Below, piece after piece: positions 46,401-52,400 of a stretch of DNA of 64,000 bases. Location of the stretch: assembly GCF_003790525.1 (NCBI RefSeq), contig NZ_CP033635.1; one strand, given 5' to 3'. Source of the stretch: Escherichia coli. GTDB lineage: Bacteria; Pseudomonadota; Gammaproteobacteria; Enterobacterales; Enterobacteriaceae. Made by a program: the position numbers. Positions within the stretch are counted from its first letter, which is position 1; the number at the start of each line of letters is the position of its first letter.

Positions 46401-49400
46401 CTTCCAGCGCCTGACGTTTCTCCAGCAGCGTGCGGTACGCGGGGTGAACTTTGGTGTACAGCTTGGAGATTTCCGCCTCTTTAAAGGTCAGTTCGTTCAA
46501 CTGCGCGTCGATGTTCACCATCGAATCGAGCACCGCTTTCGCTTCCAGCGGCAGATCAACAGAATCTTTATCCTGACGGAAGGCATTCAGTTTGTTTTCG
46601 GCAACATCGAGGCGGCTACGTACTTCCGGTAACTGTTGCGCGAGGAAAGCGAGGCTTTTCGACGCTTCCGCCGATTTGCGCTCAATATTTTGTTCCTGAT
46701 AGTTACGGGCGATGCTGTTAAGAATGTCGCGGATCTGTTCGCGATCTTCACCGGTATAAGTCAGGCTCAGTACGCCTGCGTCTTTGCCGTTCTCCGTTAC
46801 CGTCAGGCTGTTTTGCAGTTGGTTGATCATCCCCAGCGTGGAGTATTTGGTGACGGTAAACTCACTGCCCGGGCTGGCGTGAATGGCTTCAACCATCAGC
46901 GTGACGCCTTCTTTTTTCAGTATCTGGCCCGCTTGCCCACGGGCGCTAAAGCCGCCATCGCTGCTCAGGGTGTAGTTTTTATCGTCCAGCACATTAAGCA
47001 TAAACACCTGATCCGCCATCTCTTTCGGGCGGTTAAAGGTGGTCACTTTCACCGTTTCGTTCTGACGTCCCATCAGGCGATCCCAGCCCGCACCGAAAAT
47101 CGGGAACGTGTTTTTGCTCACCGCAATATCGAGGTCGAGATCGTCCACCGTTTTACCAAGCACCAGGCGCGAACGAATCAACTGGATCTCGGCGTCCGAT
47201 GCAGGCGGTTTGTTGGCTAACGCCGATCCGATATCCTGCACTAACGAATTGCCGCTGTTTTGCTCGATTTGTACCAGTGCGTCGGCACTATAAATCGGCG
47301 TGGCGAAGAAGGTGTAAACCACGGCACAGACGGCAAATACGGCGGTGATGCCAATCACCCACCAGCGCGCTTCAATGACGGTGCCGACCAGGCGACCAAT
47401 ATCGATTTCATCACTGCCCGTTACCGGAGCGGCATGTTGTTTTACTTTTTCTGTCATTCTTATACCTGCTCTGCGTTCAATGCCTGCGCCCACTGGCGGG
47501 CAGACCGTTCAAGTAATGTGTACACCGCTGCAAACGTTTCCCGGCTTTTGCGATACGGATCGGGGATTTCACATTCGTTATCCCAGTGACCAAACAGCAT
47601 CACTTTGCCGCGCATCTCAGGTGCCATCTCGCATAAGCGTTCGATATGGCGCTTTTCCATGGTCAAAATCAGGTCATAGTTGCGACACAGACGGCGGCTG
47701 ATTTGCCGTGCACAGTGACCTTCCAGAGACAGTTGATGTTCTGCGGCGACGCTGATAGCGGTAGGATCAGCGCCCTTACCGACCAGCGCGCCGAGTCCAG
47801 CGGACTCCACTTTCAGCTCCGGGTGATAACGTTGCAGTAAGCGTTCCGCCGTCGGGGAACGGCAAATATTGCCGACACAGACAACTAAGATGTTGTTAAA
47901 CATGACGATTACCAGTTATGAATGTCGCTGGCTGTATCCGTCATGTAACGGACACCGCTAATAGTTGGCAGCAACTGATTGATCAGACGGTTCCAGCGGG
48001 AAACCGGGGCGGTGGTGACATACACCACGTCATAAGGTTGCAGGCGGAATTCTGTCGCCATCACCAGCGACGTCGCATCGGACATATCCAGCTGGTAGAT
48101 ATTGGCAATCTTGCCGTTACGCCCGCCCTCGCCTTTCAACGGACGAATGACAAAGATGCCGCTGGCGTTGGAGGTGGTCATGTCGATGCCTTCGGCATTG
48201 CCCAGAGCTTCAGTCAGGGTCATGCCGCTAAAGTCCATTTTCAGGGTGCTCTGTTTCTTCACTTCACCCATCACAAATACTTTCAGATCATCATTACGCG
48301 GCACGTAGAGAATATCGCCGGGATAAAGCAGTCGGTTCTGATTGAGGTCGCCGTTTTGCATCAGCGCCTGCAAAGAAATGCGTTCTTCACGACCATTGTG
48401 TGTTAGCACCACGTTGCGCCAGTCAGCGGTGTCGGTCAGGCCACCTGCGGCGTTGATGGCGTCGAGAATGGTCAGTGGTACGTTGGTGATCGCCTGTTGA
48501 CCGGATTTATTCACCTGACCTGAGATATAGGCCTTTTGTGAGCGGAAGGCGGCGATATTAACGTCCACCTGCGGGTCAGCGATGTACGTCGCTAAGCGCC
48601 CGGTAATATCACTGCGGATTTCAGCGAGCGTTTTCCCGACTACGTGAACCTTGCCGATATACGGGTAAAACATAGTGCCGTCAGGCTGTACCCAGTTGCC
48701 GGTGTCGCTGGAGCTGCGGTACTGACCGGCTGGCGTGGTGAGTTCCGGGTGATCCCAGACGGTGACATTAAGAACGTCCCCCGGCCCGACGCGATACTGG
48801 TAATTCGCGATCTCACTTTCCAGCGTCATATTGGGGCGCGCTACATTCGGGCGTGGGCGTAATTGGTCAATCAGGCGCGGGGTCAGCGGATAAACATTCA
48901 CCATTTTGTCGAGATCGAAATCAGCGTCCTGCTGTTTGATGACGTCTTTGCCCATCGTCGACATATTGCTGCCCGGAAGTACTGTGCAACCGCTTATCAA
49001 GGTTACTGACACCAATAATGGCATCAATTTCATTTTGGATTTCATCATTGTTTATTTATCACTTTGGCAGAGTAATTATCCTGTGCACTATTAATAGCAA
49101 TGTCGCATGCACATTTACCTTGCAGTTAATTGAATAAAAATTTAACTGGCATCAGTCCTAAAAAAATTGATTTCATCCGCAGGCTATTGACAGAATAATT
49201 CAGACTGGTCTTTCAGGCATCCAGACACGCTACCGCCCCTGGCTTTTTAGCTACCAATACACTGATTTAGCTTAATTTTTCAAACCCTCTCTGCATACAA
49301 TCGTTGATGAGAAAGGGTTATTGCGGAAATTAACTTCCGAATATAAGGTGACATTATGGTAATTGAATATTGGCTCTCCAATAATGCAGGAGGAAGTGTT

Positions 49401-52400
49401 ACAGCTAACGGAATAGCAGGCAAGGTAACAATTCGGCAATTGGTTATTTTTAAGAATTATATTAAGTGTCATTCAATATGGTTTTTAGGAGTTTCTTTAG
49501 GTTGACAATATTTAATATTGCGTCTCCACATGCGATATTTCTTAAATAATGTTTTATTATTACCACTTTTAATTCAGGGATAATGTGATGTTATTACCCT
49601 CAAATAATATGAGATAAATAGTGCTGCAACATTGCATTTTTGCCCCGATTTATCCATGATCGAATTGTGACATTTGTCATACAACGAATAGGTTTTGTAC
49701 TTACTATGGAATGGATTGCCGATCCGTCTATCTGGGCCGGGTTAATCACGCTGATTGTGATCGAACTGGTCCTCGGCATTGATAACCTGGTCTTTATTGC
49801 TATCCTCGCCGAAAAACTACCGCCGAAGCAGCGCGACCGCGCACGGGTTACCGGGCTGCTGCTGGCGATGTTAATGCGCCTGTTACTGCTGGCGTCAATC
49901 TCCTGGCTGGTCACCCTGACGCAACCGCTGTTCAGCTTCCGCTCGTTTACCTTTAGCGCCCGCGACTTAATCATGCTGTTTGGTGGTTTCTTCCTGTTGT
50001 TCAAAGCCACGATGGAGCTGAACGAACGGCTGGAAGGGAAAGACAGCAATAATCCCACACAACGCAAAGGTGCGAAGTTCTGGGGGGTGGTGACACAAAT
50101 TGTGGTACTGGACGCCATCTTCTCACTCGACTCGGTGATTACCGCCGTCGGGATGGTCGACCATTTACTGGTCATGATGGCCGCCGTGGTTATCGCTATC
50201 AGCCTGATGTTGATGGCCAGCAAGCCGTTAACCCAGTTCGTTAATAGCCACCCGACCATCGTTATTCTCTGCTTAAGCTTCCTGTTGATGATTGGCTTTA
50301 GCCTGGTGGCAGAAGGTTTCGGCTTCGTCATTCCGAAAGGCTACCTGTACGCTGCCATTGGTTTCTCGGTGATGATCGAGGCACTCAATCAGTTGGCTAT
50401 CTTTAACCGGCGACGTTTTCTTTCCGCTAATCAGACGCTACGCCAGCGGACTACCGAAGCGGTAATGCGCCTGCTTAGCGGGCAAAAAGAAGATGCGGAA
50501 CTGGACGCCGAAACCGCGTCCATGCTGGTGGATCATGGAAACCAGCAGATCTTTAATCCGCAGGAACGGCGGATGATTGAGCGGGTACTTAATCTTAACC
50601 AGCGTACCGTCAGCAGCATTATGACGTCGCGCCACGATATTGAGCATATCGATCTCAACGCGCCGGAAGAAGAAATCCGCCAGTTGCTGGAGCGAAATCA
50701 GCATACGCGGCTGGTGGTTACCGACGGTGATGACGCAGAAGATTTGCTCGGTGTTGTTCACGTTATCGACCTGCTACAACAGTCTCTGCGCGGCGAACCG
50801 CTCAACCTGCGGGTGTTGATTCGCCAGCCGCTGGTGTTCCCGGAAACCTTGCCGTTGTTACCTGCCCTGGAGCAGTTCCGTAATGCCCGCACGCACTTTG
50901 CTTTTGTGGTGGATGAGTTTGGCTCGGTGGAAGGGATTGTGACATTAAGTGACGTCACTGAAACCATTGCCGGTAACTTACCGAACGAAGTGGAAGAGAT
51001 CGACGCCCGCCATGATATTCAGAAGAATGCGGACGGTTCCTGGACGGCGAATGGTCATATGCCGCTGGAAGATCTGGTGCAATATGTGCCGCTGCCGCTG
51101 GATGAAAAACGTGAATATCACACCATTGCCGGGCTGTTGATGGAGTATTTGCAGCGTATTCCAAAACCTGGCGAAGAAGTTCAGGTGGGGGATTATTTGC
51201 TTAAAACGTTGCAGGTAGAAAGCCATCGCGTGCAGAAGGTGCAGATTATACCGCTGCGTAAGGATGGCGAGATGGAGTACGAGGTGTGATGGTATCGGTC
51301 ATTTTACCCGATAGCCGAAAGGAATAAGATGAGGGAACCGCGCCAGCGGCGATTTACCGCCGGGAGCCCGGGTTGCCAGGGTGGTGGAGATTGAGCCACC
51401 CTGGCACGTTCACCGGCTTGAGCGTTCCATAGTAGTGAGGAACATCAAGTGAACGGAACAGCCTTCGATCTTACATATTCAGAATATAATGGTGCCGCCG
51501 CGAACGCCTGATGCGACGCTTTACGCGTCTTATCAGGCCTACAGGACTGGTCACCTGGTAACCTACATCTTCTCCAGCAACTTCTTCACATCTTTGCCAT
51601 TGCGGGAATCTTTATTCCGCTCGGCCCAGTCATTCAGGCGACGTTTCGCTTCGTCCTGTAGATGTTTGCGCAGTAACTGATCCACTTGCAGGCTGTAATT
51701 GAGTTGCTGCCAGTTGCCATAAACCCGCAGCGGTACTGGCGTTTCTTTCAGGAAATCAATCAGTTTACTTTCCCCGTTCCAGCCACCCACGACCCGAATA
51801 TCAAACTGGGTGTCGCAGGTTTGATCTGCCAGATTCAACGTACCAGCCCCGGAAAGCGCCAGCATGGGCGACTCGCCCTGCATGTCATCAAGTGTCACAA
51901 CACCATTGTCGAGCGTCAAATCGGTAGAGAAGTGATCAAGCCGGGTCACGTTATCAAAGTTTTCAGCGGCCTTCACATCACCGCCATTACGCTCTACCGC
52001 TTGCTGAATCATCTGCTGGAAGTTCATCCCTTCCATACGTGTGTCGGTCATCTCAACATGCGCCTGCCCTTGCCAGTTACGGCGAAATGCTTCGGCATCT
52101 ATGTCAGCACCAGAGAAATCCCCCGCCAGTGACATTTTACCGGTCAGCGAAATGGGGTAGTTAAAGGCATTCAGAATGGAACCAATCTCGACATTTTCCA
52201 GCCGTGGATGGAAAACTATACGCGGGTGAGAGGCTGTGGCATCCAGCGTACCAGGTAACGACACAACACCCTGGTTAAGTTTGCCCTGCAACTGGATAAT
52301 CTCCAGCAAACCCGACTTGTTGGTCATTTGCGTGGCAACATCTGTAAAATTCATTCCGCGCCAGCGCACGTTACTGGCCTGCAACAAAATATCAGCCGTA

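Follow-up and report, generated by a model that had tools for sequence, protein, structure and literature searches.

How is the colanic acid (cps/wca) operon of Escherichia coli switched on from the short piece of DNA that separates its first gene, wza, from the divergently transcribed yegH, and which bases in that piece are the ones to consider? We addressed this question in a stretch of 64,000 nucleotides of E. coli DNA (NCBI RefSeq assembly GCF_003790525.1, contig NZ_CP033635.1), hereafter called the window, whose coordinates are used throughout; box, promoter and leader sequences are read in the wza sense unless stated otherwise. With a probability of about 0.8 the gap between the two genes is the region from which the colanic acid operon is already known to be regulated, and it also accommodates a short yegH promoter. 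The feature is already known, and what is new is a coordinate map based on conservation and a few leads.

Results

Identity of the gap between wza and yegH

The gap covers positions 49049-49705 (657 bp) between the divergent genes wza (47909-49048, minus strand) and yegH (49706-51289, plus strand), in agreement with a preliminary description of this DNA which had given about 650 bp between the two starts and had called the region AT-rich. The guanine-plus-cytosine (GC) content is 34.4% compared with 49.6% for the window, which places the gap within the lowest 8.6% of 657-bp windows, and only the O-antigen cluster is lower. A composition of this kind (34% versus 50% GC) is as AT-rich as one would expect for a promoter region silenced by H-NS.

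Compared with E. coli K-12 MG1655 (NC_000913.3, 2137244-2137901) the gap was 98% identical, with 13 substitutions and one 1-bp indel, all of which fall in stretches that are not conserved among relatives and none within the boxes or promoter elements described below. It was matched by megablast in 4831 of 5426 complete E. coli genomes and over at least 80% of its length in 4818 of them. Given the near-identity to K-12 and the wide occurrence, this is the E. coli chromosome and the well-studied region upstream of the colanic acid operon. The K-12 cps (wza) promoter region is said to have been described by Stout in 1996 and by Wehland and Bernhard in 2000. It is the same locus with the same JUMPstart element, candidate boxes and promoter hexamers, and no substantive difference was found in a comparison made by sequence and not base for base to the published start and operator coordinates.

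Strain KE51 (NZ_CP141080.1, locus positions 3964-5086) illustrates one route by which some of the approximately 11% of E. coli genomes lost the region. An IS1 is located just upstream of the yegH promoter and a deletion has removed the cluster, beginning with the wza promoter and reaching as far as a truncated glycosyltransferase adjoining wcaM.

Conserved blocks and a rigid upstream module

A scan of species-representative genomes with Wza yielded 80 loci spread over more than 20 genera of enterobacteria; in 77 of these yegH was located divergently upstream of wza, usually with a gap of 650-700 bp, and relatives were compared at these 77 loci. The aligned gaps consisted of sharply bounded conserved blocks with unconserved DNA between them. 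On the minus strand, going towards wza, the first block (49544-49531) holds a sequence here called box 1 (TAAGAAATATCGCA, which reads TAGGATATATCGCA in Enterobacter and TGAGGATAATCCTA in Atlantibacter), the second (49508-49480, TTGTCAACCTAAAGAAACTCCTAAAAACC) holds box 2 at 49499-49486 and the third (49467-49447, TTAATATAATTCTTAAAAAT) holds box 3. These are followed by the block of the predicted wza promoter (49425-49392, TTGCCTGCTATTCCGTTAGCTGTAACACTTCC), the JUMPstart (49264-49226) and several blocks in the lower part of the leader (49200-49049). Mean identities over the 77 loci were 0.74, 0.81 and 0.86 for boxes 1, 2 and 3 and 0.74-0.98 for the elements altogether, as compared with 0.35-0.40 in two unconserved stretches, namely an AT-rich, unstranded spacer that separates the upstream module of wza from the promoter of yegH (49545-49625, mean identity 0.40) and the 5' part of the predicted wza leader (49270-49390, minus strand), which also varies in length.

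The distances between the blocks were fixed in one part of the gap and free in the others. TGTCAA was followed by box 2 after 17 nt in 59/60 loci, box 2 (TCCTAAA) by box 3 after 34 or 35 nt in 58/61 loci, box 3 (TCTTAAAA) by CTTGCC after 30 or 31 nt in all loci, and CTTGCC by GCTGYAAC, that is the -35 by the -10 region, after exactly 19 nt in 66/66 loci. The distance from yegH to TGTCAA was free (197-375 nt), as was that from the -10 region to the ops element among genera (154-191 nt). The fixed spacing upstream and the free spacing downstream of the -10 region therefore define a rigid upstream module of about 125 bp that ends at the -35/-10 pair. The preliminary description had called the whole gap a leader, a term that suits only about 340 nt of predicted wza leader and 39 nt of yegH leader, and the remainder is made up of promoters, activator sites and unconserved spacer.

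Open reading frames (ORFs) were tested against Pfam, and it is highly unlikely that the gap encodes a small protein. The two candidates are an ORF of 49 amino acids at 49356-49505 on the plus strand and one of 66 codons at 49272-49472 on the minus strand. The former is annotated by the Prokaryotic Genome Annotation Pipeline (PGAP) as a hypothetical protein (WP_162829787.1) in many E. coli genomes, which speaks in its favor, but there is no such annotation in K-12, neither ORF has a Pfam match or is kept in relatives (intact in 3/77 and 1/77 loci, respectively), and conservation is limited to parts of either ORF and shows no relation to their codons. The 49-amino-acid ORF also overlaps the wza promoter and the boxes and is probably an annotation artefact. 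The 66-codon ORF had already been judged spurious, and rightly so.

A predicted wza promoter at the end of the module

A sigma-70 scan was run on every locus and the hits were projected onto the alignment. A single sigma-70-like site, TTGCCT-17-TGnAACAAT, recurred in 76/77 loci, and the next-best position reached no more than 28/77. In the window this site (49395-49423, minus strand) reads TTGCCT-17-TGtAACACT, with the -35 element TTGCCT at 49423-49418, a spacer of 17 bp (within the range of 17 +/- 1 bp) and an extended -10 element, TGn plus AACACT, at 49403-49395; in most genera the -10 hexamer is AACAAT. From this position the wza transcription start is predicted at about 49388 +/- 2, corresponding to about 2137583 in K-12, and the leader at about 340 nt. 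The literature describes one promoter only for cps, located upstream of wza and equipped with a -10, a -35 and an RcsAB box.

A simple promoter scan of the gap gave no more sites than were found in shuffled sequences. Its sole minus-strand match, TGGAGA-16-CATAAT at 49380-49353, was rejected as the main promoter as it lies in an unconserved stretch.

Three RcsAB-like boxes upstream of the promoter

The RcsAB consensus is TaAGaatatTCcta (PMC4325325), and 14-bp matches to it were scored with T1, A3, G4, T10 and C11 as the conserved core positions. Box 1 (49531-49544, minus strand) matches the consensus at 9/14 positions and 5/5 core positions, with the perfect half-site on the left (TAAGA...TCGCA). 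Box 2 (49486-49499, minus strand, TAAAGAAACTCCTA) matches at 10/14 and 4/5 core positions, has its perfect half-site, TCCTA, on the right (TAAAG...TCCTA), and lies within the near-invariant block TTGTCAAC..TCCTAAAAA (49480-49508). Box 3 (49451-49464) can be read on both strands, as TAAGAATTATATTA on the plus strand (TAAGA...TATTA) and as TAATATAATTCTTA in the wza sense (TAATA...TCTTA), with 10/14 matches, 4/5 core positions and one perfect half-site on each strand; its conserved block (49447-49467) is near-invariant across genera. Counted from the predicted wza start the centers of boxes 1, 2 and 3 are located upstream at about -149.5, -104.5 and -69.5, respectively. On the K-12 chromosome boxes 1, 2 and 3 correspond to 2137727-40, 2137682-95 and 2137647-60, respectively. 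RcsAB boxes generally lie roughly 100 bp upstream of where transcription begins.

Which of the boxes are bound by RcsAB we infer from their match, conservation and spacing. Box 2 is the likeliest candidate for the published RcsAB operator; for wza, RcsA-RcsB binding and loss of induction upon mutation were reportedly found by Wehland and Bernhard in 2000, as told in secondary sources. Box 3 is a genuine conserved cis element and possibly a further RcsAB or RcsB site, and box 1 is a candidate for a third RcsAB site or for a site related to H-NS. The preliminary description had noticed a TAAGAAT-containing sequence near 49443-49460 as a partial RcsAB box with matches at only 7 of 14 positions. 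TAAGAAT is present and begins at 49451, within that range, but the best 14-mer matches at 10/14 on either strand. As an RcsAB-like site the element is thus of higher quality, and conserved to a much greater degree, than was held. It is one of the three boxes (box 3), and box 2 is an at least equal candidate for the published operator.

Evidence against the proposed arrangement and other promoter readings

Several observations weigh against this assignment of promoter and boxes. No site with three or fewer mismatches to the RcsAB consensus was present anywhere in the gap, and the matches of at least 10/14 with 4/5 core positions numbered 3 (the palindromic box 3 being counted twice) as compared with 0.67 expected, a number reached by about 3% of the shuffled sequences. 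Because the gap is so AT-rich and the enrichment is barely above chance, the operator is not identifiable by consensus matching alone, and the low confidence expressed earlier in the RcsAB box was an apt caution in view of this marginal enrichment. A full-text literature search for the three box sequences returned irrelevant matches only. In E. coli the promoter resembles the consensus only weakly (7/12 plus the TG), and a wza start is absent from the start-site profiling of K-12 (Kim 2012; PMC3415461 supplement). Such an absence is expected given that the operon is silent, and the position of the start therefore stays inferred. According to a secondary source RegulonDB lists two promoters, one for sigma-70 and one for sigma-E; a conserved sigma-E motif for a second promoter could not be placed in the gap. 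Finally, portions of these conserved blocks can also be read as promoters in two other ways.

In the first of these a TATAAT without mismatch at 49461-49456 (wza sense) would act as the promoter; transcription would begin at about 49449, corresponding to about 2137645 in K-12, and the leader would measure about 400 nt. This would place the center of box 2 at about -43.5, with the box covering approximately -50 to -37 like a class II RcsB box, and the center of box 1 at about -88.5, and would make the downstream TTGCCT..AACACT either a second promoter or an element that is transcribed. The hexamer is 6/6 in E. coli and lies in a block conserved at more than 95%, but the same position reads TATTAA or TATTAT in other genera, it has neither a -35 element nor a TG, and it is not among the positions that score consistently as promoters across the loci. 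Furthermore, the conserved block here is 19-21 bp long, which exceeds a -10 element, and the rigid spacing runs 60 bp beyond the TATAAT to the TTGCCT/AACAAT pair before it relaxes. We therefore consider this arrangement improbable. In the second, the block 49508-49480 would be a promoter and not an RcsAB box, with TTGTCA, a spacer of 15-16 bp, TAAAAA and a start at about 49476, corresponding to about 2137672 in K-12, and box 1 would act from about -61.5. Although TTGTCA is invariant and 5/6 to consensus, and a promoter score is obtained for TTGTCA-16-AAAAAT in 28/77 loci, the -10 in E. coli is without the key final T and its position varies among genera, the spacer itself is conserved, and the TCCTAAAAA part is close to the tail of the rcsA RcsAB box, TCCGAAAAA, with exactly TCCGAAAA in Enterobacter. 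A promoter at this block is very improbable. The TTGCCT-17-TGnAACAAT promoter with RcsAB-like boxes upstream of it is thus the arrangement that we retain.

Comparison with the rcsA promoter and number of operators

Literature data show that RcsA-RcsB activates both wza and rcsA. In K-12 the rcsA start was located 132 nt upstream of the ATG in the same start-site profiling data, and the best RcsAB-like site of rcsA, TAAGGATTATCCGA, is centered at -125.5 from this mapped start. When extended, this site reads CCTAAGGATTATCCGAAAAAT and is similar to box 2 of wza (CCTAAAGAAACTCCTAAAAAC), and box 2 of Enterobacter has TCCGAAAA. In addition, an exact 12-mer, TTAATATAATTC, is common to wza box 3 (49465-49454) and the K-12 rcsA upstream region (positions 271-282 of the rcsA stretch), where it is found at a distance of 34 bp on the upstream side of the RcsAB box of rcsA; a shared word of 12 nt or longer was reached by only 18/1000 shuffles. 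The two promoters are therefore alike in having a far-upstream RcsAB box (-125.5 for rcsA versus about -104.5 for box 2 of wza), the tail TCC(G/T)AAAAA and the 12-mer, whereas they differ in that the two shared elements occur in reversed order and that rcsA has neither a JUMPstart nor a long RfaH-dependent leader.

These similarities bear on the number of operators. With somewhat less than even odds, only one of the boxes would be a true RcsAB operator, and boxes 1 and 3 would be kept for other binding, for example as an H-NS nucleation site or for an architectural protein. Such a view is in line with each box having one good half-site only and with box 1 being the least conserved (0.74), and the CGATAT of box 1 resembles the high-affinity H-NS motif. 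It is less easily reconciled with boxes 1 and 2 both being canonical in two lineages, those of Atlantibacter and Citrobacter freundii M-21 (TGAGGATAATCCTA and TGAGGCTAATCCTA, respectively), and with box 3 having its 12-mer in common with the rcsA promoter, which is autoregulated by RcsAB.

In the cps cluster of Klebsiella the control elements are distributed differently, with a promoter P1 upstream of galF that has the RcsAB box TAAGATTATTCTCA and a promoter P2 upstream of wzi that has a JUMPstart (PMC3438125). The chromosomal position beside yegH, the presence of both kinds of control element and the conserved yegH promoter are as for wza, whereas in Klebsiella the RcsAB box and the JUMPstart are divided between two promoters. 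In K. quasipneumoniae galF takes the place of wza, divergent from yegH, with a gap of 765 bp (locus positions 3236-4000) in which the yegH promoter is kept and TAAGATTATTCTCA is found 176-189 nt before galF; the rest of the gap is unrelated and partly GC-rich, and nothing in it could be recognised as homologous to the upstream module of wza. Owing to this lack of homology the galF promoter P1 is uninformative as to which block of wza is the operator.

JUMPstart, ops and the wza leader

RNA elements were tested against Rfam. The JUMPstart at 49226-49264 (minus strand) matched RF01707 over the full length of the model (1-38) with 57.3 bits (gathering score 35, E 4.6e-12), a match far beyond chance that includes the short hairpin of the model, and the presence of this element had been correctly stated before. 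On the non-template strand the ops 12-mer, GGCGGTAGCGTG, is present in exact form at 49237-49226, and 189 nt separate it from the ATG of wza; ops was kept in 70/77 loci (by regular expression) and lay 186-199 nt from the wza ATG in 65/66. No further Rfam family was detected at E <= 1 within 48500-50300. RNAalifold on 66 leaders supported the JUMPstart hairpin alone, with no additional conserved structure.

Downstream of the JUMPstart the leader contains conserved blocks, all on the minus strand. Two of these, both at least 90% conserved, are located at 49183-49200 (AUUAUUCUGUCAAUAGCC), which repeats the TGTCAAT word of 49507-49501, and at the 3' end of the leader directly before the wza AUG (49049-49095, GUGCACAGGAUAAUUACUCUGCCAAAGUGAUAAAUAAACA). 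RfaH-dependent operons typically lack an AGGAGG-like ribosome-binding site, and no AGGAGG-like Shine-Dalgarno sequence was found in the 15 nt upstream of the wza ATG.

Between ops and wza there is also an AGGA-N3-AUG at 49159-49150 (AGGA at 49159-49156, AUG at 49152-49150) in the conserved core (49139-49165, UUUUUAGGACUGAUGCCAGUUAAAUUU) of a candidate mini-ORF of 16 codons (49126-49176, MKSIFLGLMPVKFLFN). The evidence on this ORF is equivocal. Its frame and stop position recur in 44/68 distinct sequences and the variation is partly synonymous or at third codon positions, which favors a real ORF, whereas about 20 loci have AUA or AUU in place of the internal AUG, Trabulsiella and Franconibacter do not keep the frame intact and the codon-position entropy is only weakly periodic, all of which speaks against it. 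From the sequence comparison a real 16-codon mini-ORF is possible. More generally, we regard it as rather unlikely that the gap holds conserved functional parts that have gone unrecognised, namely the rigid triple-box unit as an activating module and the AGGA-N3-AUG as an ORF of 8-18 codons or as a binding site for a protein or a small RNA. If this were true, the AGGA-N3-AUG could in either of these roles add a second, post-initiation checkpoint; possibly ribosomes would load there, so that translation is coupled to the polymerase modified by RfaH over a stretch of 190 nt otherwise exposed to Rho.

A second JUMPstart was found in the window at 23786-23824 (minus strand, 56.4 bits), presumably in the leader of the O-antigen cluster, downstream of galF. 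It belongs to the same Rfam family with a similar score (56.4 versus 57.3 bits) and to the same RfaH/ops class as the wzx leader of strain CFT073. By analogy with that leader it would be transcribed and bound by RfaH in the wild type, unlike that of wza, which needs a de-silencing signal.

The yegH promoter and neighboring features

On the other side of the gap the yegH promoter (49634-49668, plus strand) consists of the -35 element TTGCAT at 49634-39, a 16-bp spacer and the -10 element CATGAT at 49656-61. In K-12 the yegH start was mapped by start-site profiling 39 nt before the ATG, corresponding to 49667/8 of the window (PMC3415461 supplement), which is 6-7 nt past the -10 element picked by conservation. 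Because the predicted start agrees with the published one, the yegH promoter serves as a positive control for the conservation logic. An alternative TTG start codon of yegH at 49640 was rejected since the transcript, as measured, begins downstream of it, and the ATG at 49706 is used here. At the start site there is a palindrome (49667-49682, plus strand, TGTGACATTTGTCATA), TGTGA-N6-TCAtA, which matches the CRP core TGTGA-N6-TCACA at 9/10 positions and is kept in most genera; it could act as an operator or form a hairpin at the 5' end.

The product of yegH is a membrane protein of the TerC/CBS/CorC family. On the right side yegH is followed by asmA, and on the left side wzc, wzb and wza lie on the minus strand. 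Three other RNA elements of the window scored above the Rfam gathering score, namely an algC RNA motif at 34672-34721 (minus strand), inside the colanic acid cluster and probably upstream of a phosphomannomutase gene, the histidine operon leader at 6892-7015 (plus strand) and the small RNA STnc240 at 4520-4594 (minus strand).

Discussion

The elements of the gap, their coordinates, conservation and spacing come from the present comparison, and H-NS coverage, RfaH loading and Rcs dependence are taken from the literature. In the uropathogenic strain CFT073, H-NS was bound over the wza promoter, which was silent in rich medium, as seen by chromatin immunoprecipitation in the wild type. The wza ops of that strain is identical and lies 190 nt before the gene, sigma-70 and RfaH signals at wza and this ops appeared only after deletion of hns and stpA, and the authors of that work concluded that the locus requires an initiation signal to counter silencing. 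In an evolved strain an IS1 between the JUMPstart and wza enhanced the colanic-acid phenotype.

Taken together with the map, the following sequence of events is the most likely. H-NS would coat the AT-rich gap and keep the weak wza promoter silent. Upon envelope stress phosphorylated RcsB together with RcsA would bind the upstream box or boxes and activate the weak extended -10 promoter. RNA polymerase would then pass through a leader laid out as an unconstrained segment of 120 nt, the JUMPstart with ops, about 190 nt of partly conserved RNA and the wza start codon, and would pause at ops, where RfaH would be loaded. By suppressing Rho- and H-NS-dependent termination RfaH would allow the operon of about 20 kb to be transcribed, and it would probably also aid translation of the Shine-Dalgarno-poor wza. 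The preliminary description had seen in this region the likely control hub for Rcs-dependent capsule induction, a view with which the near-identity to K-12, the JUMPstart/ops and the conserved boxes and promoter are in good agreement.

Induction of colanic acid is a classic read-out of the Rcs envelope-stress response and affects phage resistance, desiccation tolerance and biofilm behavior. The established picture of Rcs and colanic acid is unchanged by the present map. Its value lies in the three candidate RcsAB sites, the promoter kept in 76/77 loci, the leader segment of free length and the conserved leader blocks, for which it names the bases to mutate.

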